A stretch of 64,000 nt of DNA, taken from contig JAHXHN010000007.1 in assembly GCA_025656675.1 (NCBI GenBank), positions 5,040-69,039 of the forward strand. The letters are read 5' to 3'. The DNA is from Candidatus Thiodiazotropha sp. (ex Codakia rugifera). Its GTDB lineage: Bacteria; Pseudomonadota; Gammaproteobacteria; Chromatiales; Chromatiaceae. Shown piece by piece: positions 6,075-39,023 of the stretch. The notes beneath the pieces were generated by a model, which saw only the letters and a list, made by a program, of their open reading frames with translations, was not told the origin of the DNA and ran no database searches. The translations under genes and the position numbers were made by a program. Positions within the stretch are counted from its first letter, which is position 1; every line of letters starts with the position of its first letter.

Positions 6075-6092
6075 CTGTCATACTCCTGTAAC
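6075..6092 (+). promoter_or_regulatory. Candidate Pho box (PhoB binding site) upstream of pstS
   Basis: CTGTCAT-ACTC-CTGTAAC matches the PhoB box consensus CTGTCAT-N4-CTGTCAC at 13 of 14 positions. Lies about 180 nt upstream of the pstS start in a 630-nt AT-rich leader. Coordinates approximate to within 1 nt. Confidence 0.4.
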
Positions 6093-6270: not shown

Positions 6271-7152
6271 ATGAAAAGAAAATTGTTTAGTGCCATCCCG
6301 TTGGCAACCACTACCCTGTTACTTGCTATAGCAGCGCAAGCTGCAGATCGTACCGTTATTCAGAACAAAGGCTCTGATACCCTGGTTAATGTCGCCCAGG
6401 CATGGGCGGAAGCCTATCGGGATGTCGATGCAAATATCGCAGTGGCTGTTTCCGGAGGGGGGTCCGGTACAGGCATAGCGGCTATGATCAACGGTACTGT
6501 GGATATAGCCAATGCCAGCCGTAAAATGAAATCAAAAGAGGTTAAACTGGCAAAGAAGAAAGGTCAGAATCCCATCGAACATGTGGTTGGTTATGATGCC
6601 CTCGCTGTCTTTATCCATAATGACAATCCGGCTAAATCCTTATCCTATGAACAGCTAAAATCGGTCTTCAGCCGGGGCGGCAAGGCTACAAAATGGTCCC
6701 ATATAGGACTGAAGGTTCCAGGTTGTGATAGCGATGAGATCGTCGTTGTCAGTCGCCAGAACAATTCGGGTACCTATGCCTATTTTAAAAAGGCCGTGCT
6801 TGGCAAGAAAGGCAAGTTTCGCCAAGGAACACTCGATATGCATGGTTCAAAGGATGTCGTGGACCTTGTTGAAAAAACACCTTGCGCTATTGGTTACAGC
6901 GGCCTGGCATACGCCACGGACCATATCAAAATGGCCTGCATTGAAAAAGAGTCCGGAAGTGCGTGTATCAACCCCAGTGTAGAGACTGCCAGCGACCGTA
7001 GTTACCCCATTGCTCGACCACTGTTTATGTATACCAATGGTGAACCCGCAGGGGCGATAAAAATATATCTTGACTGGGTCAAGAGTGATGAGGGTCAGTG
7101 CATTCTTCTGAAGAAGGGATATGCACCAACTCAAGATGTGAACTGCAGTTAA
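6271..7152 (+). CDS. pstS: phosphate ABC transporter substrate-binding protein PstS
   Basis: Signal peptide plus a PstS-type PBP motif (AVSGGGSGTGIAAMINGTVDIANASR). GAGGA RBS upstream. Confidence 0.9.
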   Translation: MKRKLFSAIPLATTTLLLAIAAQAADRTVIQNKGSDTLVNVAQAWAEAYRDVDANIAVAVSGGGSGTGIAAMINGTVDIANASRKMKSKEVKLAKKKGQNPIEHVVGYDALAVFIHNDNPAKSLSYEQLKSVFSRGGKATKWSHIGLKVPGCDSDEIVVVSRQNNSGTYAYFKKAVLGKKGKFRQGTLDMHGSKDVVDLVEKTPCAIGYSGLAYATDHIKMACIEKESGSACINPSVETASDRSYPIARPLFMYTNGEPAGAIKIYLDWVKSDEGQCILLKKGYAPTQDVNCS

Positions 7153-7285
7153 ATCTCCATTTACCTACTGATCAGGTTGAAGGTGCGTAAATTCGGACCT
7201 TTAACCTGACGAACAACTCATTTGCTGAATAGATAAGAATAGAACGGTATCTGCCAGTGACACCGTTTAATGGGGAGTATCAAGA

Positions 7286-8362
7286 ATGTCCCAACTCGAA
7301 GAACGCCTGGAGAGAGACCTTAATAATATCCACGATCGTGTGGCAAAAATGGGGGAGCAGGTCCAGGACGCTGTAAAAAATGCTGTTAATGCCCTTCAAA
7401 CCGGCAATAAAAAGCTTGCCTATGCAACAGTATTGAATGATAACCCGATCAATCGCTGTATGCGTGAGATCGATACAAGATGTCATCGTTTCTTCGCGAT
7501 ACATATACCCAGTGGTGGACATCTGCGCCTGCTCTCTTCAGTAATACGAGCAAATATTGAGCTGGAACGTATTGGTGATTATGCAGTGACTATTGCACGT
7601 GAAGCTGCACAGCTTTCTCAACCGCCAAGCGGAGGGCTTGGCAGAGAACTGGATCGTGTTGCTAATGAAACCATGCTTATGTTGCGGCAAGCCATTAAGG
7701 CATTTACCGAATTCAATGCCGATATTGCGAAAAGCACCATGATTATGGCGAATGAGCTGGAACACAATCTGGATGTGGTCTATACGGAAATGATGGCCAA
7801 TGACGAACGTGGCAAGGTCGAAGAGGTGCTCGCGATCTTTGTCATATTCACCCAATTAAAACGAGTCGCCGATCAGGCGAAAAACCTCTGTGAGGATACT
7901 GTATTTGCAGTCACTGGCGAGCAGAAGGCGCCGAAAATATTCAACATACTGTTTGTCGATGAAGACAACAGTTGTCACAGTCAGTTGGCAGAAGCGATTG
8001 CCAGACAAAACCATCCTCAGTCTGGCAGGTACCGCAGTGCTGGTCGGACGCAGGCAGAATCTATAAATCCAAAACTGAGATCGTTTATGGAAAAACGAGG
8101 TATCGATATCAGCCATACACAGCTGACATCGCTCGAACACCTGACTGCAAAAGAACTTTCGGAACAGCATGTCATCGTCAGTCTGCAAGGTGGCGTGTCT
8201 TCCTATCTACCGCAGATTCCATTTCATACCTCAGCCCTTGAATGGGGCTTGGGTGATATTCCAGAAGAAGAAGACGAGCATGAATATGAGATGCTTTACC
8301 ATGAAATTGCAATCTTGATAAAGGACCTGATGGAGTTGCTTCGCGGGGAAGGAGCAAGTTAA
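7286..8362 (+). CDS. phoU: PhoU-domain phosphate-signalling protein fused to a C-terminal degenerate LMW-PTP/ArsC-like domain
   Basis: Two PhoU repeats over roughly aa 1-215 (DRVAKMGEQVQDAVKNAV..., ERIGDYAVTIAREA..., VADQAKNLCEDTVF). The C-terminal 140 aa align with the LMW-PTP/ArsC P-loop region (ILFVDEDNSCHSQLAEAI versus the canonical FVCTGNSCRSQMAE). The catalytic Cys is replaced by Asp and the P-loop Arg by His. Confidence 0.8.
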   Translation: MSQLEERLERDLNNIHDRVAKMGEQVQDAVKNAVNALQTGNKKLAYATVLNDNPINRCMREIDTRCHRFFAIHIPSGGHLRLLSSVIRANIELERIGDYAVTIAREAAQLSQPPSGGLGRELDRVANETMLMLRQAIKAFTEFNADIAKSTMIMANELEHNLDVVYTEMMANDERGKVEEVLAIFVIFTQLKRVADQAKNLCEDTVFAVTGEQKAPKIFNILFVDEDNSCHSQLAEAIARQNHPQSGRYRSAGRTQAESINPKLRSFMEKRGIDISHTQLTSLEHLTAKELSEQHVIVSLQGGVSSYLPQIPFHTSALEWGLGDIPEEEDEHEYEMLYHEIAILIKDLMELLRGEGAS

Positions 8363-9295
8363 ATGTCGGCAATAAACCCACTAAACAGATCGATGACGAC
8401 CGATTTCGATAGCCGAAACATGGACTGGTATATCGATAAATTCGTTCAGTCTATTGTCTTTGTTGCAGGTATTTCCGCGATTATTTTTATCATCGGTATT
8501 TTTGTTTTTATCACCATGGAGGGTTTGGGTTTTCTGCTTGAGGATTTTAGCTTCAGGGAGTTTTTCCTCTCTCCGTTTTGGGAGCCCTCGGATGAGGATG
8601 CACCTGAGTACGGCATCCTGGCACTTGTGGCGGGTACTGCCAGCGTTACCGGGCTGGCCATGGTTGTCGCCATCCCCTTCTCTCTTGGTGCTGCCATTTT
8701 TATCGGTGAGTTTGCTTCTGGCAAGATGAGAGAGTACCTGAAGGTACTGGTGGAGCTTCTCGCTGCCATTCCTTCGGTTGTATGGGGCTTTATCGGTCTT
8801 TCCATCATGAACCCATTGATCATCGATCTGTTTGATGTACCTGTCGGCCTGAACGTACTCAATGCAGGTATCATCCTTGGATTAATGGCGGCACCTATTA
8901 TGACCTCGATCGCAGAGGATGCCCTTAAGGCAGTACCTGACCGTTATCGAGAGGCTGCCGAAGCATTGGGTGCTACGCGCTGGCAGGTGATATTCAAAAC
9001 CGTACTGCCTGCTGCAAAAAACGGTCTGCTCGGTGCAGTACTGTTGGGTGTGGGACGCGGCTTTGGTGAGACGATGGCAGTGCTCATGGCGACCGGTCAT
9101 GCGGTGAACATTCCAGGTAGCCTGTTCGATCCGGTACGTGCCCTGACGGCAACCATTGCTGCAGAACTGGGAGAAACCGCAGTAGGGTCACCGCACTATC
9201 AGGCACTGTTCACGATTGGCATTTTCCTATTCATCATTACTTTTCTAATCAACCTGACCGCGGATCTCATTGTTCGTGGCATCCGTAAAGGATAA
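8363..9295 (+). CDS. pstC: phosphate ABC transporter permease PstC
   Basis: Polytopic membrane protein carrying the EAA-like permease motif (EALGATRWQVIFKTVLPAAKNGL). The ATG immediately follows the phoU stop. Confidence 0.9.
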   Translation: MSAINPLNRSMTTDFDSRNMDWYIDKFVQSIVFVAGISAIIFIIGIFVFITMEGLGFLLEDFSFREFFLSPFWEPSDEDAPEYGILALVAGTASVTGLAMVVAIPFSLGAAIFIGEFASGKMREYLKVLVELLAAIPSVVWGFIGLSIMNPLIIDLFDVPVGLNVLNAGIILGLMAAPIMTSIAEDALKAVPDRYREAAEALGATRWQVIFKTVLPAAKNGLLGAVLLGVGRGFGETMAVLMATGHAVNIPGSLFDPVRALTATIAAELGETAVGSPHYQALFTIGIFLFIITFLINLTADLIVRGIRKG

Positions 9296-9301
9296 TAAGA
9301 G

Positions 9302-10171
9302 ATGTTTGCTGAATCTGCATTGAATATACGGAACAAGCGTGTCCAGAATCTGTTCCGCATTCTTTTTTTGATGATGACTGTGCTGTTGATCATACCGGTA
9401 GTGATCATTCTCGCTACTCTGGTTGCCAAGGGCGGCAGCATTATCTCCATTGACTTCCTGTTTACCGACCCAACCAATGGTATGACGGCAGGGGGCATCT
9501 TTCCCGCTTTACTTGGAACAGTGTGGATCGTAGCCGTTGCCTTGCTTGCTTCTGTCCCACTGGGTGTTGCTGCAGCGATCTATTTGAATGAATATGCCGG
9601 CGATAATTGGTTCACACGCATTATCCAACTGGCCATCATCAATCTGGCTGGCGTTCCGTCGATTGTGCATGCCCTTTTCGGCGTTGGTGCTTTTGTCATC
9701 TTTTTCGGTTTTGGCACCAGTATTCTGGCGGCCAGTTTAACCCTGGCTATCATGACATTGCCGGTTGTGATTGTCTCAACGCGTGAATCCTTAAGGGCCG
9801 TTCCGCAAGCTTTCAGAGAGGCTTGCTGGAATATGGGTGCTACACGCTGGCAGACCATTCGCAGAGTAGTCCTCCCCAATGCTGTCAGTGGCATCCTGAC
9901 AGGTGTCATCCTGGAAGTGTCACGCACTACCGGGGAAACAGCACCGATCATGTTCACCGGTGCCGCATTCTTTCTGCCATTTCTACCTCAGGGTGTATTT
10001 GATCAAACCATGGCCCTCTCCTTGCATCTGTTCGTAGTCGCCACCCAAGTGCCTGGTGTTCCTGATAACCTGCCATTTGGTGTCGCACTGGTACTGATAG
10101 CCATGGTACTGCTGATGAATAGTATCTCTATTGCGTTCCGTATGTATCTGCGAGGCAAAAAGAAATGGTAG
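9302..10171 (+). CDS. pstA: phosphate ABC transporter permease PstA
   Basis: Polytopic membrane protein with a second permease motif (NMGATRWQTIRRVVLPNAVSGIL). Confidence 0.9.
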   Translation: MFAESALNIRNKRVQNLFRILFLMMTVLLIIPVVIILATLVAKGGSIISIDFLFTDPTNGMTAGGIFPALLGTVWIVAVALLASVPLGVAAAIYLNEYAGDNWFTRIIQLAIINLAGVPSIVHALFGVGAFVIFFGFGTSILAASLTLAIMTLPVVIVSTRESLRAVPQAFREACWNMGATRWQTIRRVVLPNAVSGILTGVILEVSRTTGETAPIMFTGAAFFLPFLPQGVFDQTMALSLHLFVVATQVPGVPDNLPFGVALVLIAMVLLMNSISIAFRMYLRGKKKW

Positions 10172-10980
10172 ATATGAATGTCAACCTGGCTGCAGCCAAT
10201 AAAATTGAAGACCCCGCTTATAGTGCTCCCGTTAAACTCGGTGTCAGTGATCTGACCATCAGGTATGGTGGCACACCAGCGCTGAGTGGGGTCAATCTGG
10301 AAGTACGGGAACATGAAATTTTCGGCATTATCGGACCTGCCAATGCCGGAAAAACCTCTTTTCTTAAAACATTGAATCGAATGGATACTTTCAACACCAA
10401 CATGTCGGTTGAAGGCGAAATTCTGTTCAATGGACTCAATGTGCAAAACCTTAAAAACATCTATGCCTTGCGCAGCCGCATCGGTGTGGTATTCCCCTTG
10501 CCTGTCGGATTACCACTGACAATTTACGAAAACGTCGCACTTTCGCCTCGACTGCGCGGTATAAGGAGAAAAAGCGAACTCGATGTAATCGTTGAACGTT
10601 GCCTGAGCAGGGCTGCACTCTGGGATGAAGTCAAAGACAGACTTGATTCTCTCGGAAGTCTGCTTTCGGGAGGGCAGCAGCAAAGACTGACCATTGCCCG
10701 AGCACTTTCACAGGAACCCGACCTGTTGATGTTGGACGAATTCTCTATCGCGGTAGACCCGGTCACGACCATGCGTATAGAGGATGTTCTGAAAGAGTTG
10801 AAGCATGATATGACGATCATTCTAGTAACCAATCTGGTACAACAAGCGCGCCGCCTGGCAGATCGAACTGCCTTCTTTCTCGAAGGCGAATGTGTGGAAG
10901 TCGGCATTACGGAAGATCTATTTACAGGCGAGGTTCAAGATCAAAGAACCCGAGACTATGTCGAAGGTAAATTCGGCTAA
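10165..10980 (+). CDS. pstB: PstB-like ABC ATPase with canonical LSGGQ signature but noncanonical Walker A (GPANAGKTS) and no H-loop histidine (VTNLVQQ)
   Basis: ABC signature LSGGQQQRL and Walker B LLMLDEF are present. Where the second copy reads IVTHNMAQA, this copy reads LVTNLVQQA. Overlaps the pstA stop. Confidence 0.85.
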   Translation: MVDMNVNLAAANKIEDPAYSAPVKLGVSDLTIRYGGTPALSGVNLEVREHEIFGIIGPANAGKTSFLKTLNRMDTFNTNMSVEGEILFNGLNVQNLKNIYALRSRIGVVFPLPVGLPLTIYENVALSPRLRGIRRKSELDVIVERCLSRAALWDEVKDRLDSLGSLLSGGQQQRLTIARALSQEPDLLMLDEFSIAVDPVTTMRIEDVLKELKHDMTIILVTNLVQQARRLADRTAFFLEGECVEVGITEDLFTGEVQDQRTRDYVEGKFG

Positions 10981-11013
10981 TTCACAAACATTAACCCCTA
11001 TGAAGATCTCAAC

Positions 11014-11814
11014 ATGAATGCCACTGCAAAAGCCATGAGTGAACCGGTAGCGGAATATGCCATTCGAACCAGTAAACTCAATCTCTGGTACGGTACCTTT
11101 CAAGCACTTTTCGATGTTGATCTCAACATCTGCAATGGCATGATTACTTCTTTGATCGGGCCATCAGGTTGCGGGAAATCCACCCTTCTCCGTAGTGTAA
11201 ATCGTATCAATGAAAGACTTGGTTATGTGCGAATCGAGGGCAATATCGATGTCATGGATAAAAACATCTATGACCCTGATGTTGAACTGGTACAGGTACG
11301 CAAGCAGATCGGGATGGTTTTCCAAAGGCCCAATCCACTACCCATCTCGATACGGGATAATATTCTGTTTGGACACAGGATACATAATAAAGACCTTAAG
11401 TCATCGAAAAGCGATCAGAATGAAATTGTTGAATCGGCACTAAAGCAAGTGCTTCTATGGGACAAGGTGAAAGATCGCCTCAATCAAAAGGGAACGGAAC
11501 TCTCCCTGGAAGAACAGCAAAAACTCTGTATTGCCCGACTCCTACCGGTCAAACCCAGCGTATTGTTAATGGATGAGCCCTGCTCAGCACTCGATCCTAA
11601 AGGTACGGCAGCCGTAGAAGAGCTGATCTGGGAACTGCGTGGTGAATACACAATCCTTATTGTCACACATAATATGGCACAAGCCAGACGGGCCAGTGAA
11701 GAGTGTATTTTTATGTTGATGGGTAAAGTGGTCGAACATCAGGCTACGGAAGATCTATTCGTCACACCAGAACAAAAAGAAACTGCCGATTATATTGAGG
11801 GGCGATATGGATAG
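11014..11814 (+). CDS. pstB: PstB ABC ATPase with canonical Walker A, Walker B and H-loop but degenerate signature motif (LSLEEQQKL)
   Basis: Contains GPSGCGKST, LLMDEPCSALDP and IVTHNMAQA, and ends in the PstB-typical C-terminus ...DYIEGRYG. The signature reads LSLEEQQKL where LSGGQQQRL is expected. Confidence 0.9.
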   Translation: MNATAKAMSEPVAEYAIRTSKLNLWYGTFQALFDVDLNICNGMITSLIGPSGCGKSTLLRSVNRINERLGYVRIEGNIDVMDKNIYDPDVELVQVRKQIGMVFQRPNPLPISIRDNILFGHRIHNKDLKSSKSDQNEIVESALKQVLLWDKVKDRLNQKGTELSLEEQQKLCIARLLPVKPSVLLMDEPCSALDPKGTAAVEELIWELRGEYTILIVTHNMAQARRASEECIFMLMGKVVEHQATEDLFVTPEQKETADYIEGRYG

Positions 11815-12703
11815 GATGCGAATTAATCTGATAAGTATAGGTACTTTATTTGTCTGTCTACTCTCAACATCATTGCTTGTGCAGGCACAACGCATCCCAA
11901 TTCAAAACCGCGGATCGGACAGCATGGCGATCGCTGTATCGGCTTGGTCAGAAGCCTACCAGAAAATCGACCCTGAAGTGGGTATTGCCGTATCCGGAGG
12001 CGGTAGTGGAACCGGAATTGCGGCATTGATCAATGGTTTGGTCGATATCGCCAATGCCAGTCGACCACTCACAGCCAAAGAGCTTATGTTGGCAAAGAAA
12101 GCGCAAAGAGATCCCATGGAACATATTGTGGGCTATGATGCAGTTGCCATCTATCTGCACAGGGACAATCCGTTAAAGGCACTTTCATTTGCTCAGTTAG
12201 GTGGCCTATTTGGTCGGGGTGGCGCCACTTCAATATGGACAGACCTTGGAATCGAAGTACCCGGTTGTAAAGATCAGAAGGTCATTCTTGTCAGCAGACA
12301 AAGCAGTTCCGGTACCTATGCCTATTTTCGTAAGAAAATCATAGGAGAAAAATACCGGAATAAATACAAGCCTGAAATATTGAGCACTCAGTCATCCAAG
12401 GATTTGGTGGAACTTGTTGGAAATACACCCTGCGCAATTGGGTACAGTAGTTATGCTTACCAGACACCGGAAGTCAAAGCTGTATGTCTCTTACAGCAAG
12501 AGACTGAGAGTTGTTTGCAGGATGCAGCAGAGCGTGCTTCGGGAGAGACCGCCTACCCTTTGATCAGACCCCTGTACATGTACACAGATGGAGAGCCTAA
12601 CGGTAAGATTAAAGCGTATATTAATTGGGTGCTCAGTAAAGAGGGACAATGCGTTCTGTCAGGGTTGAACTACACGCCTGTACATAAAGAAGATTGTCAA
12701 TAA
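11795..12703 (+). CDS. pstS: second PstS-family phosphate-binding protein (paralog)
   Basis: Signal peptide plus the motif AVSGGGSGTGIAALINGLVDIANASR. About 60% identical to the first pstS by eye. The true start may be an internal Met at 11807 or 11816. Confidence 0.85.
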   Translation: MRGDMDRMRINLISIGTLFVCLLSTSLLVQAQRIPIQNRGSDSMAIAVSAWSEAYQKIDPEVGIAVSGGGSGTGIAALINGLVDIANASRPLTAKELMLAKKAQRDPMEHIVGYDAVAIYLHRDNPLKALSFAQLGGLFGRGGATSIWTDLGIEVPGCKDQKVILVSRQSSSGTYAYFRKKIIGEKYRNKYKPEILSTQSSKDLVELVGNTPCAIGYSSYAYQTPEVKAVCLLQQETESCLQDAAERASGETAYPLIRPLYMYTDGEPNGKIKAYINWVLSKEGQCVLSGLNYTPVHKEDCQ

Positions 12704-13302: not shown

Positions 13303-13668
13303 TTAATGTTCTCCTTTGGTACGACGTATCCCTGCCAATCGGTTACCCTGTTTCTGGGGACCTCCCTTGGGAAAAATGTCATGTAAATAGCGGTTATTGC
13401 CACGTTCAGGTCCCCAGGTATTTTTAAAGTGCTTAATCATGTCACGAACCTGGGCTTGCACACGGTGTTCTTCATAGTAAGCCTTGATGTAGTAGATCAC
13501 CTCCCAGTGATCCTTAGTCAATACCAAACCCTCCTTTTCAGCCAGGGCCACGGCGAAGGCCTCAGACCACTCATCCATTTTCTGAATATAACCTTCCTGG
13601 TCAGTAGCTACCTTGACACCATTGACATCTAAATATTCAACACGGATTGCGTATGGATTTGTACTCAT
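13303..13668 (-). CDS. DsrC/TusE-family protein lacking both conserved C-terminal cysteines
   Basis: KDHWEVIYYIKAYYEEHRVQAQVRDMIKHFKNTWGPERGNNRYLHDIFPKGGPQKQGNRLAGIRRTKGEH aligns with the DsrC/TusE core. The protein ends without the conserved CxxxxxxxxxxC-terminal cysteines. Lies 66 nt downstream of narI on the same strand. Start taken at the internal Met. Confidence 0.7.
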   Translation of the reverse strand: MSTNPYAIRVEYLDVNGVKVATDQEGYIQKMDEWSEAFAVALAEKEGLVLTKDHWEVIYYIKAYYEEHRVQAQVRDMIKHFKNTWGPERGNNRYLHDIFPKGGPQKQGNRLAGIRRTKGEH

Positions 13669-13734
13669 AGAGACAGCCTCTCGACAGGGTCGTGGGGGAC
13701 TCACGTCCCCCACGGTTTCATCAATTGTTTGTGC

Positions 13735-14433
13735 TTAGTTCATAGGTATCCGTTTGACACGAACAATCTGATAGGCACGACCGAGGTAACTAAACGGTAC
13801 GCTCCAAACATGAACCAGACGGGTAAACGGAAAAATCAGAAACACGGTCATCCCGAAGAATATATGGATCTTGAAAATCGTTGAGACTCCCTGAACCAGA
13901 CTCGGCTCTGCACTCAGGGTGGCCACACTTTTAACCCATTCAGTGAGCACTATCATCTGCGAGACATCACCATGGGAAGCATGACCTGATGAGACGAGAA
14001 TCGTGCTCAGACCCAGCGTGACGGTTACCAACAACCAGCCGATTACAAAGGTATCACGTGTACGACTGGTGGCTTTAATACGCGGGTTGCTGACGCGGCG
14101 ATAAAACAACATGGCGGCACCAACAAGGCACACAATGCCAAAGATGCCGCCAGCATAGATGGCGAGGTACTGATGTGCAACATCTGAGATGCCCATAGCG
14201 AGAAACCAGCTGTGTGGCAACAGCATACCGGCCAGATGACCAAAGAAGATACCCAGTATACCTATGTGGAACAGGTTACTGGCCAGGCGCATATTTTTAT
14301 TGCTGAGCAGTTGGCTGGAGTCGGTCTTCCATGTGTACTGCTCACGATCAAAGCGAATCCAGCTTCCCAGAAGAAAAATGGTCCCTGCCAGATAGGGGTA
14401 GGCTCCGAAAATAAAGTCATGAAGTGTCATCAT
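13735..14433 (-). CDS. narI: respiratory nitrate reductase gamma subunit NarI
   Basis: Five-TM cytochrome b with a NarI-like N-terminus (MMTLHDFIFGAYPYLAGTIFLLGSWIRFDREQYTWKTDSSQLL). Confidence 0.9.
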   Translation of the reverse strand: MMTLHDFIFGAYPYLAGTIFLLGSWIRFDREQYTWKTDSSQLLSNKNMRLASNLFHIGILGIFFGHLAGMLLPHSWFLAMGISDVAHQYLAIYAGGIFGIVCLVGAAMLFYRRVSNPRIKATSRTRDTFVIGWLLVTVTLGLSTILVSSGHASHGDVSQMIVLTEWVKSVATLSAEPSLVQGVSTIFKIHIFFGMTVFLIFPFTRLVHVWSVPFSYLGRAYQIVRVKRIPMN

Positions 14434-14446
14434 TTCGATTCTCTCC

Positions 14447-14962
14447 TCAGGCGGCCTGGGCTAAAGTGCCACGATTTTCAACGATACGAATCAGCTGTGC
14501 ATAGGGACTCTCCTTCTTCTCCAGGTTCTCCGCCAGCACTTTCAGTACTTTGACGGCGTCTCCCAGAAAAACCCGCGCCTGCATATCGTCCAGGGTCGAT
14601 ACAAACTCAAGTATCAGCGGCAGATAGTCGGGGATTTCACCTTTCTCCAACTCCAACCCCATGCCCTTGTAATACTCTGACAGGTCAATCAGGGCCGGCC
14701 CACGTCCTCGATCGTCACCGAACAGGTGGTGAGTCAGATGCAGATCGTGCTCTGGCGTCATATCGAAGGTTTGTACATAAATCCCCTGCAGTCCGGTCAG
14801 ATCATGTGATTGCATCCAGGTTATTAGCTGCATCAAAGTATCTCGCTCCTGCTCACTGATACCCGGATCTCCTTTTAACAGGCTGATGATCTCCGGCATA
14901 TTCTCCAGTAACACTTCATCTGGATAATCGAGCAGCCGCGCCAAAATAGTGTAGATATGCAT
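14447..14962 (-). CDS. narJ: nitrate reductase molybdenum cofactor assembly chaperone NarJ
   Basis: NarJ/TorD-family sequence lying between narH and narI. Confidence 0.85.
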   Translation of the reverse strand: MHIYTILARLLDYPDEVLLENMPEIISLLKGDPGISEQERDTLMQLITWMQSHDLTGLQGIYVQTFDMTPEHDLHLTHHLFGDDRGRGPALIDLSEYYKGMGLELEKGEIPDYLPLILEFVSTLDDMQARVFLGDAVKVLKVLAENLEKKESPYAQLIRIVENRGTLAQAA

Positions 14963-14976
14963 GAATTTTCTCCTGC

Positions 14977-16524
14977 CTAATCTTTTTTACGTGGCATGAT
15001 GCCCTGTGGGGTATATGTGCGCTTGCGTGGTGTCGGAAACAGGCTGACACCCGGACCGCTGCCCTGGGAACTGATGTTACCGGGAGCAAAGCCATTCTGA
15101 CCCTGAAAAGCATATGGATCCTCTTGAGCCATCTCTTCGTGAGAGGTCGGTATGACGAAACGATCCTCGTAGTTGGCAATACCCAGCAACTGGTACATGG
15201 CCTCGGCCTGAGACTCGTTGAGTCCGACTGACTCCAAGACCGCTGTATTCGGCTTGCCATCAACCTCCTTGGAACGCTGGTTACTGCGCATCGCCATCAT
15301 CCGGTTAAGTGCATTGATGATCGGACCCTCATCACCTGCGGTTAGAAGATTGGCCAGGTAGCGTGCAGGAAAGCGCAGTGTCTCGGCTTTGGGCATCACG
15401 CCATCCGCCTCAGTGGGTAGATTGCCCTGGTCAATCTGGCTCTGCACAGGTGATAGCGGGGGGACATACCACATCATGGGCAGGGTGCGGAATTCCGGAT
15501 GGATGGGAAAAGCGATCTTCCACTCCATTGCCATTTTGTAGACCGGTGAGTTTTGAGCTGCATCGAGCCAGGTCTGCGGAACGCCATCTTCCAGTGCCTG
15601 TTTGATCACCTTGGGATCATGGGGGTCGAGGAAGATATCTAGCTGGGACTGATAGAGATTCTTATTGTCATCGGTTCCGGCGGCATCACTGATCTTGTCT
15701 GCATCGTAGAGTACGACACCGATATAGCGGATACGTCCGACACAGGATTCGGCACAGGCTGTAGGTATCCCCGATTCGATACGCGGGTAGCAGAGAATGC
15801 ACTTCTCCGACTTGCCTGATTCCCAGTTGTAGTAGATCTTTTTGTAGGGACAGGCGCTGACACACATGCGCCAACCACGACAGCGGTCCTGATCGATCAA
15901 GACTGCACCGTCCTCATCGCGTTTATAGATGGCGCCGGATGGACAGCTTGCTACGCAGGCTGGATTCAGGCAGTGATTACATAAACGGGGCAGATACATA
16001 TGGAAGGTCTTTTCAAAGTCCTTGTACATCTGTTTCTGGATGCCCTCGAAGTTCTTATCCTTCGCACGCTCGTCGAATTCACCCGCCAGATCATCTTCCC
16101 AATTCGGACCCCAATGGATTTTTTCCATCTGTTCGCCGGTGATCATGGAGATTGGACGCGCAGTGGGGGCTGCCTCGGAGAGTTCCTTGTTCTGCAGTTT
16201 TGGATAATCGAAATCGAACGGTTCGTAGTAATCGTCAATCTCAGGCATATCCGGGTTGGCAAAAAGATTCAATAATTTACTGATACGGCCACCCGCCTTC
16301 AGTTCCAACTCACCATTCTTCTTCTCCCAGCCACCGTTCCACTTGTTCTGATTCTCCCACTCCTTGGGAAAACCGATACCCGGTTTACTCTCCACGTTGT
16401 TGAACCAGGCATATTCCACCCCCTTGCGATTGGTCCAGATATTTTTACAAGTCACTGAACAGGTGTGGCAACCAATGCACTTGTCCAGATTCAGGACCAT
16501 GGAGATTTGTGCACGTATTTTCAT
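14977..16524 (-). CDS. narH: respiratory nitrate reductase beta subunit NarH
   Basis: N-terminus MKIRAQISMVLNLDKCIGCHTCSVTCKNIW plus multiple Fe-S Cys clusters. About 515 aa. Confidence 0.95.
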   Translation of the reverse strand: MKIRAQISMVLNLDKCIGCHTCSVTCKNIWTNRKGVEYAWFNNVESKPGIGFPKEWENQNKWNGGWEKKNGELELKAGGRISKLLNLFANPDMPEIDDYYEPFDFDYPKLQNKELSEAAPTARPISMITGEQMEKIHWGPNWEDDLAGEFDERAKDKNFEGIQKQMYKDFEKTFHMYLPRLCNHCLNPACVASCPSGAIYKRDEDGAVLIDQDRCRGWRMCVSACPYKKIYYNWESGKSEKCILCYPRIESGIPTACAESCVGRIRYIGVVLYDADKISDAAGTDDNKNLYQSQLDIFLDPHDPKVIKQALEDGVPQTWLDAAQNSPVYKMAMEWKIAFPIHPEFRTLPMMWYVPPLSPVQSQIDQGNLPTEADGVMPKAETLRFPARYLANLLTAGDEGPIINALNRMMAMRSNQRSKEVDGKPNTAVLESVGLNESQAEAMYQLLGIANYEDRFVIPTSHEEMAQEDPYAFQGQNGFAPGNISSQGSGPGVSLFPTPRKRTYTPQGIMPRKKD

Positions 16525-16617
16525 AATTTGTTCCTCAAAATTCTTTCGCTGCCGGTGGCATGGGAGTGAGGGCTATCATCAGCCCCCCCTATTCCCTGTG
16601 CCGTTACGATCAAAAAC

Positions 16618-19600
16618 TCAGTTGTTGATTCCTGGAGGATTGAGTTGGGATTCACGTTTAGCCGTCAGCGGACGTTCAAGCCAATCCACATCGCCATCCT
16701 TGATTTTATGAATCACGACGTACTCATCACGCTGTGAACCGACAGTGCCGTAGTAGTTGAAAGCGTAAGAGAGTTGGGCATAGCCACCAATCATATGGGT
16801 AGGTTTAGGCACGATACGTGTCACGCTATTGAGAATACCGCCACGTTTACCGGTGGTATTGGAACCCGGTACGTTCACGTGTTTCTCCTGGGCGTGATAC
16901 ATGAAGGCCGCACCACTGGGTATGCGCTGACTGACCACCACCCTGGCCACAGTGGCGCCGTTGCCATTGATCGCCTCTACCCAGTCGTTATCCTTAAGAC
17001 CTATGGATTTGGCATCAACCTCCGCCACCCACATATAAGGACCGCCACGGAACAGTGTCAGCATGCGCAGGTTGTCCTGATAGGTGGAGTGGATACCCCA
17101 CTTGGAGTGAGGCGTGATCCAGTTGAGAGTCAGGTGTGGTTTGCTCTTTACTTTGTCCGGTACATTTTCGTGTGTCTTAAGATCGACAGGAGGACGGAAT
17201 GCGCACAAGCCCTCACCGAAATCGAGCATCCACTCATGATCCAGGTAGAACTGGGCACGCCCGGTCAGGGTGCGTAGTGGGATATGCTCATGGACATTGG
17301 TCCAGCAGGCGTTGTAACTCACCTCTTCCGATTCAATTCCAGACCAGGTCGGTGCGGTGATGATCTTGCGTGGTTGGGCCTGAATGTCCCGATATCGTAT
17401 CTTCTCGTCCTTGCGTGAATCGCACAGGTGATTGTGATCGATGCCGGTTTTTCTACCCAGGGCTTTCCAGGACTTGTGAGCAACCTCGCCATTGGTCTCC
17501 GGTGCCATCTGCAGTACCGAATCACAGACATAAATATCCTCTTCCAGAGATGGCAAACCCTGGCTGACGCCCTCTTCCTTGATCACACCATTGAGTTCCT
17601 TAAGTTGCTCGTATTCCACCTCGGTGTTCCAATCCAGACCCTTCACTCCATTTCCGATCTTGGTCATTAACGGCCCAAGAGAGGTGTATTTCTTGTAGGT
17701 GTTGGTGTAATCACGCTCCACCACCTTCAGCAGGGGCAATGTCTTACCCGGTACGGGTTCGCACTCACCTCGCTTCCAGTCCTTGACTTCACCCAGAGGC
17801 TGAGCCAGCGCCATGGGGCTATCGTGTTGCATGGGAAGCGCCACCACGTCCTTACGGGTACCCAGATGGGTTTCTGCCAGTTCGGAGAATTTCTTGGCAA
17901 TGGTCTTGAAGATCTGCCAGTCGGACCTGGACTCCCAGGCCGGATCTACTGCAGCATCCAGTGGATGTACAAAGGGATGCATGTCGGTGGTATTCAGGTC
18001 ACTCTTCTCATACCAGGTCGCCGTTGGCAGGATGATGTCGGAGTAGGCGCCGGTGGAATTGAGACGAAAGTTGATATCCACCATCAGATCAAGCTTGCCA
18101 ACCGGAGCCTCTTTTCGGAAGACGATCTCTTTGGAGTCAGCTCCGATGTTAGCCTCCTGCATGACACCGTTTTGCGCACCCATCAGGTGCTTGAGGAAAT
18201 ACTCGTGACCCTTGGCTGAGCAGCCCAGCAAGTTGGCGCGCCAGACAAACAGGTTACGTGGATGGTTCTCCGGTGCATCGATGTCTTCACTGGCAAATGT
18301 AAGATCACCGCTCTTGATTTGATCAACCATATATTTGGCCACACCTGACTCATCGGTAGCACCGGCCTTTTCGGCTTCATCCACGATATCCATTGGATTC
18401 TTATTGAAGTGCGGCGCGGATGGCCCCCAACCCAGACGCTGGGAGACGACGTTATAGTCAGCTAAGCTGTAGCCCTTGTAGCGACCCTTGGCAGTGGACG
18501 CCATAAGCTCATCGGCATTGACTGTTTCATAACGCCACTGATCGGTATGAAAATACCAGTAGGTGGTAGAGGCCATATGACGGGGTGGACGGTGCCAATC
18601 CAGACCGAAGGCAATAGGCGCCCAACCAGCCTGGGGTCGCAGCTTCTCCTGCCCCACATAGTGAGCCCAACCACCACCGGATTGCCCAACACAACCGCAC
18701 ATGTGCAGCAGGTTCATGATGCCACGGTAGTTCATGTCGTTGTGGTACCAATGGTTAATTGCGGCACCAAGGATGACCATCGACTTGCCGTGAGTCTTTG
18801 ATGCATTATCAGCGAACTCGCGGCCGGTGCGCTCCAGGTCGGCACGTTTAACACCGGTAACTTTTTCTGCCCAAGCCGGGGTATAGGGCACTGACTCATC
18901 GTCGTAGGATGTGGCCAGGTCATCACCCAGCCCCCGATCAATACCGTACTGAGCCACCTGCAGATCGAACACGGAGGTGACCATGACTGTTTCACCAGAA
19001 GCCAGCTTGAGTTTACGCACCGGTATGTTACGCATAAGAACGTCACCCTCACCCGGGGTGAAGTGGGGGAAGGCAACCGATACCACATCATCACTACCGT
19101 CGATACAGGAGAGTTCTGCCTCGATTACAGACTGGTCTACAGCATTCTTCTCCAGCAGGTTCCACTTACCCTCCTCGCCCCAACGGAATCCCACTGAACC
19201 ATTGGGCACTACAAAGGCCTCACTCTTGGTGTCGTAGACCACTGTTTTCCACTCGGGATTATTCGACTCGCCCATATTGTTGGAAAAGTCCGAGGCGCGC
19301 AGAAAACGATCCGATATATAACGATCCCCATCCTTTCGCAGCATCACCTGCATTGGCAGATCAGTGTACTTACGTGCATATTCAGTGAAATATGGGTCCT
19401 GTTTGTCGACATGGAACTCCTTCAGTGCCACATGACCCATGGCCAGAAAAGCAGCGGAATCGGTGCCCTGTTTGACCGGCATCCAGAGGTCGGCAAACTT
19501 CACATACTCAGCGTAGTCCGGGGCCATGGAGACTACCTTGGTTCCGTTATAGCGGGACTCGATAGCAAAGTGGGCATCTGGGGTGCGGGTCATAGGCAGG

Positions 19601-20367
19601 TTGGCACCACAGATGATGAGGTATTTGGAGTTGTACCAGTCGGCTGCCTCCGGCACGTCGGTCTGCTCACCCCACACCTGTGGTGAAGCCGGTGGCAAAT
19701 CACAGTACCAATCGTAAAAGGAACCGCATGCGCCACCGATCAGAGAGAGGTACCGGGAACCGGCAGCGTAACTGATCATGGACATGGCTGGAATCGGTGA
19801 GAAGCCATAGATCCGGTCAGGCCCCCATTTTTTCGCCGTATAGACATTGGCTGCTGCAGTGATTTCAGTCACCTCATCCCAGGTGCTGCGCACGAAACCT
19901 CCCAGACCGCGCACCGCTGTGTATTTCTTGCGCTTGTTGGGATCACTTTGGATTGCCTCCCAGGCTTCAACCGGGTCTTTACCACTTTTTCGTTCGGTGC
20001 GGTAGAGATCGAGCAGACGGCCGCGAATCAGCGGATATTTAATCCGGGTTGGACTATAGAGGTACCAGGAGAATGAGGCCCCACGTTGACAGCCCCGTGG
20101 TTCATGGTTGGGCATGTCTGGACGGGTACGCGGATAGTCGGTCTGCTGCATCTCGTAAGCAACCAGACCGTTCTTGACATAGATCTTCCAGGAACAGCCG
20201 CCGGTGCAGTTCACTCCATGGGTGGAACGGACCACCTTGTCATGACGCCAGCGATTGCGGTAGGTGTCTTCCCACTGCCGGTCTTCACCGGTCACGATGC
20301 CATGACCTTTGGAGAAGGTCCCTTGGATCTTCTTGAAGTACCTGAGTCTGTCTAACAAATGGCTCAT
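16618..20367 (-). CDS. narG: respiratory nitrate reductase alpha subunit NarG
   Basis: N-terminus MSHLLDRLRYFKK...HGVNCTGGCSWKIYVKNGLVAYEMQQTDYP, the molybdopterin guanine dinucleotide-binding large subunit. Start taken at the internal Met of the track ORF. Confidence 0.95.
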   Translation of the reverse strand: MSHLLDRLRYFKKIQGTFSKGHGIVTGEDRQWEDTYRNRWRHDKVVRSTHGVNCTGGCSWKIYVKNGLVAYEMQQTDYPRTRPDMPNHEPRGCQRGASFSWYLYSPTRIKYPLIRGRLLDLYRTERKSGKDPVEAWEAIQSDPNKRKKYTAVRGLGGFVRSTWDEVTEITAAANVYTAKKWGPDRIYGFSPIPAMSMISYAAGSRYLSLIGGACGSFYDWYCDLPPASPQVWGEQTDVPEAADWYNSKYLIICGANLPMTRTPDAHFAIESRYNGTKVVSMAPDYAEYVKFADLWMPVKQGTDSAAFLAMGHVALKEFHVDKQDPYFTEYARKYTDLPMQVMLRKDGDRYISDRFLRASDFSNNMGESNNPEWKTVVYDTKSEAFVVPNGSVGFRWGEEGKWNLLEKNAVDQSVIEAELSCIDGSDDVVSVAFPHFTPGEGDVLMRNIPVRKLKLASGETVMVTSVFDLQVAQYGIDRGLGDDLATSYDDESVPYTPAWAEKVTGVKRADLERTGREFADNASKTHGKSMVILGAAINHWYHNDMNYRGIMNLLHMCGCVGQSGGGWAHYVGQEKLRPQAGWAPIAFGLDWHRPPRHMASTTYWYFHTDQWRYETVNADELMASTAKGRYKGYSLADYNVVSQRLGWGPSAPHFNKNPMDIVDEAEKAGATDESGVAKYMVDQIKSGDLTFASEDIDAPENHPRNLFVWRANLLGCSAKGHEYFLKHLMGAQNGVMQEANIGADSKEIVFRKEAPVGKLDLMVDINFRLNSTGAYSDIILPTATWYEKSDLNTTDMHPFVHPLDAAVDPAWESRSDWQIFKTIAKKFSELAETHLGTRKDVVALPMQHDSPMALAQPLGEVKDWKRGECEPVPGKTLPLLKVVERDYTNTYKKYTSLGPLMTKIGNGVKGLDWNTEVEYEQLKELNGVIKEEGVSQGLPSLEEDIYVCDSVLQMAPETNGEVAHKSWKALGRKTGIDHNHLCDSRKDEKIRYRDIQAQPRKIITAPTWSGIESEEVSYNACWTNVHEHIPLRTLTGRAQFYLDHEWMLDFGEGLCAFRPPVDLKTHENVPDKVKSKPHLTLNWITPHSKWGIHSTYQDNLRMLTLFRGGPYMWVAEVDAKSIGLKDNDWVEAINGNGATVARVVVSQRIPSGAAFMYHAQEKHVNVPGSNTTGKRGGILNSVTRIVPKPTHMIGGYAQLSYAFNYYGTVGSQRDEYVVIHKIKDGDVDWLERPLTAKRESQLNPPGINN

Positions 20368-20519
20368 CTGTTTTTTCTCCCTGGGGACAAGCTGTATCAA
20401 TAACAACAAGCCCCACGTTTGTTAGGATCGGATGAATCCGCCAAGGCCTCCTGGGGGGGGTGAAATCGCCTTGTTCATTTCTGCAGATTCATCCGAAAAC
20501 TGTTTTCTATCAATTCACA

Positions 20520-22124
20520 CTAAGGATTCTTGTACTCAGCCTTGGGTCCGAGGTAGTACCACCAATTCAACAGCAGGCAGACAAAATAGAAGATGGCAAA
20601 ACCGTAGAGTGCATATTCAGGGGTTGCCATCTTGATTTGCTCACCGAACACCTTAGGAATGATAAAAGCACCATAGGCGGCCACTGCAGAAGTCCAACCC
20701 AGCGCAGGCCCAGCCTGCTCTTTGTCGAAGACCATGGCTATGGTGCGGAAGGTGGATCCGTTGCCAATGCCTGTCGCGGCGAACAGTATGAGAAACAGTA
20801 CAAAGAAGGGCAGGAAAAATTCCTCAGGCGTTGCTGACACATAGGCCTGCTTCAGGAAATAAGCCACGCCCAGGGCACTACCGATCATCACGATGGAAAC
20901 GATTTGCGTTACCTTGGCGCCACCCACTTTGTCGGCAATCCAGCCACCCACCGGACGAATCAGCGCACCAATGAACGGCCCCATCCAGGCATACATCAAG
21001 GCTGATGGCCCATTTGGGTTGGCTGTCGTGTGGGTCATTACCCCATCTACCATCAGATGCTGAAACCCGAAGACCACCTTGATGGCCAGTGCGAATCCTG
21101 CGGAGTAGCCTATAAAGCTGCCGAAAGTCATGGTGTAGATAACGCTCATGACCCAGGTGTGCTTATTGCCGAAGATCTTGAACTGGCGCTGCAGGTTCGG
21201 TTTGATGTCACCAGGAATCATTTTCAGCAGCATGACTGTACCGAACAGAATGCCTGCAATGACCGGCCATTTGGCCCAGCCGGGGGCTCCCATTCCGGTT
21301 GGTGCCGGTAAAATGATATAGAGTCCGATTGCCGCAGTGATGAAACCAATCAGCAGCATGCCGCTGATTTTCGAGAAGGCACCGAAGGTCGAGCCGATGT
21401 GGGGTGAAACGTGATCGGTTCGCAGATTATTCATACCGAACCAACCGGCAAAGGCCAGTGGTATCAGCAGTATCAGCCAGACATAACCGGCGTTGTGAAT
21501 CCAGGTCTCTGAGCCTGTCGGAATCTTGCCGATCAGGGTGCCAGAGGTATTTTCCAGAATCATCGAATCTCCACCGAAGATACCGAAAGTCATCACCAGC
21601 GGTATCACGATCTGCATGGTGGTAACACCTGCATTGCCCAGACCCGCATTCAATCCCAGTGCAAGACCCTGCATTTTCTTTGGAAAGAAGAAGCTGATAT
21701 TTGACATTGAGGAGGCGAAATTGCCACCGCCGAAGCCGGACAGGAAGGCAAGTATCTGGAATACCCACAGTGGCGTGTTCTTGTCCTGCAAAGCGATGCC
21801 GGCACCTATGGCCGGGATCATCAGCAAGGCAGTGGTGAAAAAGATGGTATTGCGTCCACCGGCGATACGGATGAAGAAACTGCTGGGGATGCGCAGTGTT
21901 GCACCGGTCAGACCGGCGATGGCTGCCAGGGTGAACAATTCGGCTTTCTCAAATGGAAAGCCCAAGTTGAGCATCTGCACGGTGATGATGCCCCAGTAGA
22001 GCCACACCGCAAAACCACAGAGCAGACTCGGGATCGAAATCCAGAGATTCCGGTTTGCTACTTTTTTACCCGTTGACTCCCAAAATTTCGAATCTTCTGG
22101 GTTCCATTCTCTGATATCTGACAT
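20520..22124 (-). CDS. narK: NarK-family MFS nitrate/nitrite transporter
   Basis: 12-TM MFS protein with a NarK-like N-terminus (WNPEDSKFWESTGKKVANRNLWISIPSLL). Confidence 0.9.
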   Translation of the reverse strand: MSDIREWNPEDSKFWESTGKKVANRNLWISIPSLLCGFAVWLYWGIITVQMLNLGFPFEKAELFTLAAIAGLTGATLRIPSSFFIRIAGGRNTIFFTTALLMIPAIGAGIALQDKNTPLWVFQILAFLSGFGGGNFASSMSNISFFFPKKMQGLALGLNAGLGNAGVTTMQIVIPLVMTFGIFGGDSMILENTSGTLIGKIPTGSETWIHNAGYVWLILLIPLAFAGWFGMNNLRTDHVSPHIGSTFGAFSKISGMLLIGFITAAIGLYIILPAPTGMGAPGWAKWPVIAGILFGTVMLLKMIPGDIKPNLQRQFKIFGNKHTWVMSVIYTMTFGSFIGYSAGFALAIKVVFGFQHLMVDGVMTHTTANPNGPSALMYAWMGPFIGALIRPVGGWIADKVGGAKVTQIVSIVMIGSALGVAYFLKQAYVSATPEEFFLPFFVLFLILFAATGIGNGSTFRTIAMVFDKEQAGPALGWTSAVAAYGAFIIPKVFGEQIKMATPEYALYGFAIFYFVCLLLNWWYYLGPKAEYKNP

Positions 22125-22187
22125 TCGAGTATCCTCGTTGATTGAACAGATTTTCTAACTACCCGGCTAGCCGGGACCTTCCCATGA

Positions 22188-24890: not shown

Positions 24891-24932
24891 GGAATTCGAA
24901 CCTAATTTAATTTGGCCAGAAGGGACCTACAA

Positions 24933-24946
24933 TTGACTGAAATCAA
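24933..24946. promoter_or_regulatory. FNR/ANR-type box TTGAC-TGAA-ATCAA in the divergent narK/narX intergenic region
   Basis: 9 of 10 matches to TTGAT-N4-ATCAA, about 45 nt upstream of the narK1K2 start codon. Coordinates approximate. Confidence 0.4.
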
Positions 24947-25127
24947 TCCAGCTTTTGCACCAACCCCTTGTCTAATCCTTTAGGAGTATTTGCTGTACCA
25001 CTTGCAATGCATTGAAAAAAAAGATTATTCCTAATAACGTGGCAAGTATTCGCAATCGTGCCGCGATGTTGTCAACGCAGAAGGATTAATCCCACAAATT
25101 TCTTGCTGGAATTGACAATGCAGCCGT

Positions 25128-33029: not shown

Positions 33030-33090
33030 CCCAGTTGATAAGACCTATATAAGGAAGCTTTGGTGCTCGCACAAAAGTTAAGGAGTTGGC

Positions 33091-38364: not shown

Positions 38365-39023
38365 GTCATCAATTGGCAAGATCAAAGTTCAGTTTTATTT
38401 TACAGGTTGTAGCAGCACTGGTCCTTAGTGCCATTCCAATTCTCCACTATCCATTTGCCTGGTTTGAGACCCTATTCCATGAACTTTCTCATGGGCTGAG
38501 TGCTGTCTTGACTGGAGGTTCCATAGAGTCAATAGCGCTGAATTACAATGGCTCGGGCTTATGCACCACTATAGGTGGTAACCGGTTTCTAATACTCGTA
38601 TCTGGATACACCGGTAGTGCATGTTGGGGCTTCCTTGTCTATATTTCTGTAACCTATACTAAGGCACATTCTGTGAAAATAGTGGCTGCATTACTTGCTA
38701 TCTTAGCTGCATTTGTCGGCATCCTATGGGTAAGAGATATTGTGACACTTAGTATCCTTCTCGTTATTATCATCGTATTCTTCGTCGCATACCGCTATGG
38801 AAGCCACCAGCTAACCCGGTCGTTTATCGAATTTACCGGTATCTATGTGGTGATGAATGCTATCCGCAGTCCTCTGTATCTGATTGATGGTAGGGATATC
38901 GGAGATGGAAGCGCACTTTCAGAATTAACCTATATACCCGAGATTTTTTGGGTGACAATATGGGCTTTGATTGGGATATCTATTTTGATGCTACTCTATC
39001 AGCGCTCTATAAAATCTGTTTGA
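38361..39023 (+). CDS. M50B-like intramembrane zinc-metalloprotease-family protein (HExxH within a TM segment)
   Basis: 220 aa polytopic membrane protein with the motif FHELSHGLSAVLTGG at the end of the first TM helix. TTG start overlapping the stop of the preceding gene (TTGA). Confidence 0.5.
   Translation: MSHQLARSKFSFILQVVAALVLSAIPILHYPFAWFETLFHELSHGLSAVLTGGSIESIALNYNGSGLCTTIGGNRFLILVSGYTGSACWGFLVYISVTYTKAHSVKIVAALLAILAAFVGILWVRDIVTLSILLVIIIVFFVAYRYGSHQLTRSFIEFTGIYVVMNAIRSPLYLIDGRDIGDGSALSELTYIPEIFWVTIWALIGISILMLLYQRSIKSV

Follow-up and report, generated by a model that had tools for sequence, protein, structure and literature searches.

The pst operon and its two PstB ATPases

We analysed a stretch of 64,000 nucleotides (hereafter the window) from a contig of Candidatus Thiodiazotropha sp. 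(ex Codakia rugifera), which carries an operon for the phosphate importer PstSCAB with two different genes, pstB1 and pstB2, for the ATP-binding cassette (ABC) ATPase PstB. The high-affinity phosphate importer of the textbooks is PstSCAB, which also acts as the sensor for the Pho regulon, and to our knowledge it has always been described with two identical PstB subunits. The operon occupies positions 6271-12703 of the + strand and is tightly packed in the order pstS, phoU fusion, pstC, pstA, pstB1, pstB2 and pstS2 (Table 1). Its genes are contiguous on the same strand, with stop and start codons that overlap or lie close together, and PstS, PstC and PstA all score above their NCBIfam cutoffs. 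At the junctions, the stop codon of pstA overlaps the start of pstB1, and pstB1 and pstB2 are two separate genes divided by a stop codon and a spacer of 33 nt. The last gene, pstS2, likely starts at the ATG at 11807, which is preceded by a GAGGGG ribosome-binding site and overlaps the stop codon of pstB2, and it is translationally coupled to pstB2.

PstB1 (271 residues) and PstB2 (266 residues) share only 37% identity. The PstB family TIGR00972 is the top family for both proteins over their full length, with E-values of 5.8e-82 for PstB1 and 4.2e-97 for PstB2, and both miss its equivalog cutoff of 343.2 bits. In the genome scan described below, the mean identity to canonical PstB was 45% for PstB1 and 49% for PstB2, compared with 62% for canonical PstB proteins among themselves. 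Proteins of the PstB1 type are often annotated merely as 'ATP-binding cassette domain-containing protein'.

The first-pass annotation of this DNA had described two copies with complementary motif defects, the first keeping the signature LSGGQQQRL with an altered Walker A (GPANAGKTS) and without the H-loop His (VTNLVQQ), and the second having a canonical Walker A, Walker B and H-loop with a degenerate signature (LSLEEQQKL). The open reading frames and the motif coordinates of both copies were verified. When we searched the solved structures, the best match of PstB1 was E. coli PstB (9k3x; E = 5e-62, full length), and a residue-by-residue alignment with this protein placed the PstB1 motifs at the canonical positions, which rules out a misreading of the motifs. 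The list of defects in PstB1 was correct for the motifs that had been quoted, but it had overlooked that the Q-loop Gln is replaced by Pro, that Walker B is followed by Phe (DEF, not DEP) and that the D-loop reads IAVD, not SALD. PstB1 retains the A-loop Tyr, the Lys and Thr of Walker A and the Asp-Glu pair of Walker B, and PstB2 is canonical throughout, the signature excepted. The full canonical set of motifs (GPSGCGKST, Q-loop Gln, LSGGQ, DEP, SALD and H-loop His) is found in neither protein.

Table 1. Features of the window, with positions counted from its first nucleotide; motif rows follow the gene to which they belong
Feature	Position	Strand	Remarks
Pho-box-like direct repeat CTGTCATACTCCTGTAAC	6075-6092	+	Pattern search; ~180 nt upstream of pstS
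pstS, periplasmic phosphate-binding protein	6271-7152	+	NCBIfam TIGR02136, 235 bits (cutoff 206.6)
PhoU fused to LMW-PTP/ArsC-like domain	7286-8362	+	NCBIfam PhoU, 134 bits (above cutoff); Pfam PF01895 and PF01451
pstC, permease	8363-9295	+	TIGR02138, 279 bits; canonical EAA loop REAAEALGATRWQ at 8948-8986
pstA, permease	9302-10171	+	TIGR00974, 264 bits; unusual conserved EAA loop REACWNMGATRWQ at 9815-9853
pstB1, ABC ATPase	10165-10980	+	TIGR00972, 274.7 bits; degenerate 'cis' half-site, consensus signature
PstB1 Walker A, GPANAGKTS	10333-10359	+	Canonical GPSGCGKST
PstB1 Q-loop, Pro111 in IGVVFPLP	10495-10497	+	Gln to Pro
PstB1 signature, LSGGQQQRL	10663-10689	+	Intact
PstB1 Walker B/D-loop, LLMLDEFSIAVD	10723-10758	+	Canonical LLLDEPCSALD
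PstB1 H-loop, LVTNLVQQA	10822-10848	+	His to Asn; Asn223 at 10831-10833
pstB2, ABC ATPase	11014-11814	+	TIGR00972, 324.3 bits; consensus 'cis' half-site, degenerate signature
PstB2 Walker A, GPSGCGKST	11158-11184	+	
PstB2 Q-loop, Gln104	11323-11325	+	
PstB2 signature, LSLEEQQKL	11500-11526	+	Degenerate
PstB2 Walker B/D-loop, LLMDEPCSALDP	11563-11598	+	
PstB2 H-loop, IVTHNMAQA	11659-11685	+	His219 at 11668-11670
pstS2, second pstS-like binding protein	11795-12703	+	TIGR02136, 185.7 bits (below cutoff)
DsrC-like protein, between the pst operon and narI	13303-13713	-	PF04358, E = 2.5e-32
Respiratory nitrate reductase cluster: narI, narJ, narH, narG-like (1263 residues), with the adjoining MFS and NarX/NarL-like genes	13735-28174	-	The four nar genes assigned by position and size; NarX/NarL-like pair on the + strand
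Three-gene module: SPFH/Band-7 (685 residues), DUF3686 + DUF7902 + AAA_5 ATPase (1757 residues), 220-residue open reading frame	30972-39023	+	
Hybrid signalling protein (1622 residues)	50446-55314	-	CHASE8, HAMP, HisKA, HATPase, Hpt, three receivers, GGDEF, EAL

Conservation and pairing of PstB1 and PstB2

We compared 20 B1-type and 19 B2-type orthologues with a reference set of 65 canonical PstB sequences. The positions corresponding to G46, Q98, G156, G157 and H210 of E. coli PstB are 98-100% conserved in the canonical set, with the signature Gly-Gly reaching 100%. All 20 B1-type sequences contain Pro in place of Q98, Asn in place of H210, Phe in place of P180 and Ile in place of S182, and the residue at G46 (Walker A position 4) is never Gly, with N, Q, T or R found instead. 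The signature LSGGQQQRL is 100% conserved in this clade, the Walker B Asp-Glu is kept in all 20 sequences (LLMLDEF), and the Q-loop segment PLPVGLP is invariant. The B2-type sequences all (19/19) contain Leu-Glu in place of G156-G157 and Lys in place of R161, and their Walker A, Q-loop, Walker B, D-loop and H-loop are canonical without exception.

Of 90 columns with a conservation of 90% or more in canonical PstB, 17 differ in B1 and 7 in B2. The motif departures of B1 comprise 13 on the Walker side (Walker A, Q-loop, Walker B/D-loop and H-loop) and 0 in the signature, and those of B2 comprise 3 in the signature and a single one outside it (Fisher p = 0.006). The complementary split of the departures is beyond chance, and each clade retains precisely the half-site missing from its partner. 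Within a clade, variation at motif positions is confined to Walker A positions 4-5 of B1 and signature positions 2 and 5 of B2, all of which are predicted to belong to the same composite site, namely the degenerate one.

The closest homologues come from Candidatus Thiodiazotropha, a sulfur-oxidising symbiont of lucinid clams (Sedimenticolaceae). For each protein, the best 120 homologues in the database show 80-100% identity and essentially the same motifs, and they originate from Thiodiazotropha, Sedimenticola, tubeworm endosymbionts and many sediment metagenomes. A scan of species genomes with B1 yielded 20 loci with a B1-type protein 56-83% identical to that of the window, and below these loci there was a clear gap, with canonical PstB at most 49% identical to PstB1. 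The carriers, which belong to at least eight phyla according to their record titles, include Gammaproteobacteria/Chromatiaceae, Accumulibacter, Planctomycetota (three), Polyangiaceae, Poribacteria, Binatia and Rhodothermia; further carriers are Acidobacteriota (Holophagales, Thermoanaerobaculia and Ca. Multivorans) and Verrucomicrobiota (Limisphaera). Among them, Limisphaera sp. 4302-co (L019) is recorded as an isolate and not as a metagenome-assembled genome.

A survey of the co-occurrence of the two degenerate genes gave a uniform result. The B2-type gene lies directly downstream of the B1-type gene in 19 of 19 complete genome loci, and the contig of the 20th ends inside B1. The usual gene order in these loci is pstS, phoU fusion, pstC, pstA, B1 and B2, with the stop codon of B1 and the start codon of B2 often overlapping by 4-8 nt, and independent gene calls on a 5.2-Mb contig gave the same six-gene operon. 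When metagenome contigs were scanned from B2, a B1 open reading frame was found upstream in 69 of 80, and 8 more have the C-terminus of B1 at their edge or beyond a longer spacer (for instance, contig L113 starts with SDYVEGKFG*, the B1 C-terminus), giving a total of 77/80; the remaining 3 contain less than 90 nt upstream of B2 and are uninformative. Neither an unpaired B1 nor an unpaired B2 was found among the 19 complete genome loci and the 77 informative metagenome contigs. The pattern in the window is that of a conserved cassette, not a local oddity. The pstS2 gene is lineage-specific and lies outside the conserved cassette, because no such gene follows B2 in the other loci examined.

A search of 1.84 billion representatives with B1 returned many fragments and apparent chimeras, and the B1 lineage occupies a few 50%-identity clusters in it. 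In the same search we noticed a second, milder lineage with the motifs GPAGAGKTT, VFAVP and VTNN. Milder complementary pairs were seen in locus L037 (4534-6396), locus L041 (2658-3443 and 5986-6747) and locus L065 (976-1773 and 4410-5171), in which one copy has Ala or Asp for the Q-loop Gln and an H-loop VPH, and the partner has the signature LSLGQ or LSPGQ. Such a pair in a metagenome-assembled genome (MAG) of Anaerolineae stands in the order PstS-C-A-B1like-B2like-PhoU, and in MAGs of Syntrophaceae and Clostridium the two ATPase genes flank pstS-pstC-pstA and are not in tandem. Asymmetric PstB pairs may have more than one origin, or they may form a graded series. In a Poribacteria MAG (L015, 7660-9974), a third odd PstB-like gene (GPTNSGKST, LSIGQQQLL and FATN) directly follows the B1/B2 cassette and adjoins a weak PstA-like open reading frame and a plain PhoU.

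B1 and B2 form two clades outside canonical PstB in a neighbour-joining tree, each of them monophyletic, and the internal topologies of the two clades mirror each other. The pairwise distance matrices of B1 and B2 are correlated (r = 0.89, Mantel p = 1e-4), which is a sign of inheritance as a unit and by itself no proof of physical contact. Since Holophagales sequences occur in both sub-clades and the cassette identity between phyla is 70-83%, compared with 62% typical among canonical PstB, we suggest that the cassette has spread horizontally. The nonsynonymous divergence (dN) from orthologues that are 74-88% identical was 0.16 for B1, 0.15 for B2 and 0.12 for PstC and PstA, while the four-fold degenerate sites are saturated, with 66-70% of them differing. 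Here, dN and saturation were used instead of a formal dN/dS ratio, which is unreliable because the NG86 dS is ~3 or fails. Because dN is low while the four-fold sites are saturated, both B1 and B2 are under strong purifying selection.

A predicted PstB1/PstB2 heterodimer and its alternatives

In the head-to-tail dimers of ABC proteins, one subunit supplies the Walker A, Walker B, Q-loop and H-loop of an ATP site and its partner supplies the signature (PMC7756269). E. coli PstSCAB is built in this way, with its two PstB subunits seated on PstA and PstC, respectively (PMC12976172). The pairing logic of the first-pass annotation is therefore sound. By this logic, a PstB1 homodimer would contain two sites without the Q-loop Gln and the H-loop His, and a PstB2 homodimer would contain two sites facing Leu-Glu instead of Gly-Gly, so that motif logic argues against homodimers, either of which would have two defective composite sites. 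The predicted consensus composite site, comprising the Walker side of B2 and the LSGGQQQRL of B1, is 100% canonical in all orthologues. Based on this motif logic and the obligatory pairing of the two genes, we suggest that an obligate PstB1/PstB2 heterodimer with one catalytic and one non-hydrolytic ATP site is the best explanation, and we consider it likely.

Such a heterodimer would power the PstC/PstA phosphate permease. Its active site would be formed by the Walker A, Q-loop, Walker B and H-loop of PstB2 and the LSGGQ of PstB1, and this consensus site would hydrolyse ATP. Its degenerate site would bring together GPANAGKTS, the Q-loop without Gln and the H-loop Asn of PstB1 with the LSLEE of PstB2, and would be devoid of the gamma-phosphate sensors and of the signature Gly-Gly. 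One ATP would then be used per transport cycle. PstB1 keeps the residues that hold a nucleotide, namely the A-loop Tyr, the Lys and Thr of Walker A and the Asp-Glu of Walker B. The degenerate site would therefore probably bind nucleotide or hold the dimer together without hydrolysing ATP at a useful rate.

The permease of the cassette is also asymmetric. We compared the EAA loops of 20 cassette and 41 canonical PstA sequences, and the cassette loop (REACWNMG) is at least 90% conserved in the 20 cassettes, whereas canonical PstA has REGSLALGATKWQ. The EAA loop of the cassette PstC stays canonical (REAAEALG). The asymmetry of the permease parallels that of the ATPases, and a fixed ATPase asymmetry may match the asymmetric PstC/PstA pair, with its unusual coupling loop in PstA. 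As a guess, B1 with its altered Q-loop could be the subunit that docks on PstA. The PhoU fusion was located between pstS and pstC in 14 related cassettes. In the window, the P-loop (CX5R) of its phosphatase-like domain, at 7955-7981, reads VDEDNSCHS, with Asp for the nucleophile Cys and His for Arg, and the first P-loop position is never Cys in the 14 cassettes (13 have Asp, and the Binatia locus has Ser). The domain looks like a conserved pseudo-phosphatase, perhaps one that serves as an oxyanion sensor. A more far-reaching proposal is that the cassette represents a separate class of Pst importer, in which the crippled site acts with the PhoU/pseudo-phosphatase fusion and the PstA loop as a regulatory sensor of nucleotide or phosphate, uptake at one ATP per cycle is gated from the cytoplasm, and the module has spread horizontally among polyphosphate accumulators (Accumulibacter), chemosynthetic symbionts and sediment bacteria. 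We regard this proposal as doubtful.

Here, we need to consider several points that weigh against an obligate heterodimer with a single catalytic site. The D-loop IAVD of PstB1 reaches into the supposedly consensus site; the first-pass annotation, which had called one site fully consensus and the other doubly degenerate, was right about the complementarity of the motifs, and its word 'fully' is slightly overstated. The Walker A of PstB1 still fits GxxxxGK[ST], and with Lys/Thr and the catalytic Glu kept, slow hydrolysis at the degenerate site is possible. Mutants of ABCC1 with Asn or Gln in place of the H-loop His of nucleotide-binding site 2 show wild-type-like transport (PMC7756269), and by analogy the H-loop change alone need not inactivate a site. 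In E. faecalis, surplus PstB2 can stand in for PstB1 (PMC12096839), so that tandem PstB proteins are not necessarily obligate partners. Finally, a mirror-tree correlation is expected for any two genes of one operon.

Other explanations for the gene pair were weighed against these observations. PstB2 homodimers might drive transport despite LSLEE. PstB1 would then be no stoichiometric half of the motor but a regulatory subunit without catalysis, such as a docking or signalling partner of the PhoU fusion. This would fit the unusual PhoU fusion in the cassette, the contact of PhoU with PstB in E. coli (as cited in PMC12976172) and the tandem PstB proteins of E. faecalis, one of which is essential and the other accessory (PMC12096839). 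However, a PstB2 homodimer would place Leu-Glu at both sites, where all 65 canonical PstB sequences have Gly-Gly, and LSGGQQQRL would hardly be completely conserved in B1 across phyla if it did not supply the missing part of a working ATP site in trans. PstB1 also has a full nucleotide-binding domain (NBD) with the invariant PLPVGLP, as expected of a subunit seated on the permease. We therefore consider a purely regulatory PstB1 to be quite unlikely.

A comparably small probability is given to the idea that both proteins are active and form interchangeable homo- and heterodimers, with the substitutions merely tuning the kinetics. The Walker A Lys and the catalytic Glu kept in PstB1, the tolerance of ABCC1 for an H-loop Asn (PMC7756269) and the redundancy seen in E. 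faecalis (PMC12096839) speak for it. On the contrary, the replacements affect five positions with 98-100% conservation in canonical PstB, they are complementary and not scattered, and neither gene was found alone in the loci examined. An acidic residue in place of the second signature Gly is a classic inactivating change, as in CFTR G551D, and this also counts against interchangeable dimers. As for decaying duplicates under relaxed selection, in which the motif losses would be incidental, the scores of both proteins below the NCBIfam PstB equivalog cutoff could be taken in its favour, but this explanation is effectively refuted. The orthologues are 56-97% identical across eight phyla, dN is ~0.15 with saturated synonymous sites and is similar to that of PstC and PstA, the substituted residues are themselves invariant, and the reading frames are intact in the recovered loci, copies at contig ends excepted. 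Pseudogenes and relaxed selection are ruled out by the conservation across phyla and the low dN.

Comparison with other ABC systems and further features of the window

E. coli PstSCAB (9k3x/9k3s; PMC12976172) resembles the system described here in its protein family, in its partners PstS, PstC, PstA and PhoU, and in being a type I importer with one NBD each on PstA and PstC. It has two identical canonical PstB subunits with equivalent ATP sites, whereas the cassette has two genes with complementary losses. Compared with the E. coli pst operon, phoU is moreover fused to a pseudo-phosphatase domain and placed between pstS and pstC. The tandem PstB proteins of Firmicutes (E. faecalis, PMC12096839; B. 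subtilis PstBA/PstBB, PMC11466899) are likewise encoded by adjacent genes of one pst operon and have unequal roles. However, E. faecalis PstB1 and PstB2 are both canonical and ~60% identical to each other, unlike the pair in the cassette, and the tandem pairs of Bacillota in our set (L033, L034, L036 and L038) are canonical and group in the tree with canonical PstB and not with the B1 or B2 clade. The authors of the E. faecalis study state that, as of 2025, tandem pstB paralogues had not been studied elsewhere (PMC12096839), and the B. subtilis pair has solely been modelled, as PstBA/PstBB (PMC11466899).

The first-pass annotation had likened the pair to asymmetric ABC exporters. The heterodimeric exporters TM287/288, TmrAB, BmrCD, PatAB, EfrCD, TAP1/2 and Rv1273c/72c (PMC7756269) share with it two different NBDs, one degenerate composite site and one consensus site, and to this extent the comparison stands. 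The NBDs of these exporters are fused to transmembrane domains, while the cassette encodes an importer. The comparison also does not extend to the usual hallmark of type I/IV exporters, the loss of the catalytic Glu of Walker B (PMC7544095), since PstB1 keeps this Glu; the losses here concern the Q-loop Gln, the H-loop His, a Walker A Gly and the signature Gly-Gly of the partner. Pdr5 has a degenerate signature LNVEQ and a replaced H-loop His (PMC7756269), and the signatures LQLEQ, LSLEQ and LSLEE of the B2 clade show the same change from Gly-Gly to a hydrophobic residue and Glu, although Pdr5, unlike PstB1, has also lost the Lys of Walker A and the Glu of Walker B. When all the motifs of Pdr5 were restored, its function was lost (PMC7756269). 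ABCG5/G8 combines changes in the signature and in Walker A without loss of the Walker B Glu (PMC7756269), as observed here, which makes its pattern closer than the exporter hallmark. Pdr5/PDR and ABCG5/G8 are full- or half-size exporters of eukaryotes and unrelated by descent. The CUT2-type proteins RbsA and NupO (PMC11466899) belong, like the present system, to bacterial importers with one degenerate ATP site out of two. Their NBDs are fused in one polypeptide, the degenerate half has lost the Walker A Lys, and they belong to another transporter class with other substrates, whereas PstB1 and PstB2 are separate and the Lys is kept.

A full-text literature search, which left most subscription journals outside its coverage, found no description of degenerate PstB or of such pairs. 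What appears to be new here is the asymmetric-NBD principle in a Pst type I importer, the principle itself being known from other ABC systems. If a motor with one active site is true, the cassette would be a natural test of whether a type I importer runs on one ATP per cycle, and it would show the role of a degenerate site outside the exporter families studied so far. Accumulibacter is the key organism of biological phosphorus removal. Since the carriers include Accumulibacter and sulfur-oxidising animal symbionts, the cassette may bear on the management of phosphate and energy.

Upstream of the operon, the Pho-box-like repeat CTGTCATACTCCTGTAAC lies in an AT-rich intergenic region. Pho-box matches were not enriched across the window (15 found compared with 8.3 expected), and one of them is well placed; CTGTCATACTCCTGTAAC is a weak candidate for a regulatory site, for which the position alone is suggestive. 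A promoter and terminator scan gave fewer promoter-like sites than were obtained in shuffled sequences.

Downstream of the operon, the DsrC-like protein ends in RRTKGEH and has no tail cysteine. Upstream of the nar genes are two MFS open reading frames, one of which encodes a 900-residue double-MFS transporter that is probably a NarK fusion, and a NarX/NarL-like sensor-regulator pair, whose response regulator has two receiver domains, follows the nar cluster on the + strand. The SPFH/DUF3686 module may be defence-like or repair-related. The hybrid signalling protein adjoins a TonB-dependent receptor (55942-57978) and a multihaem cytochrome (59800-61404).

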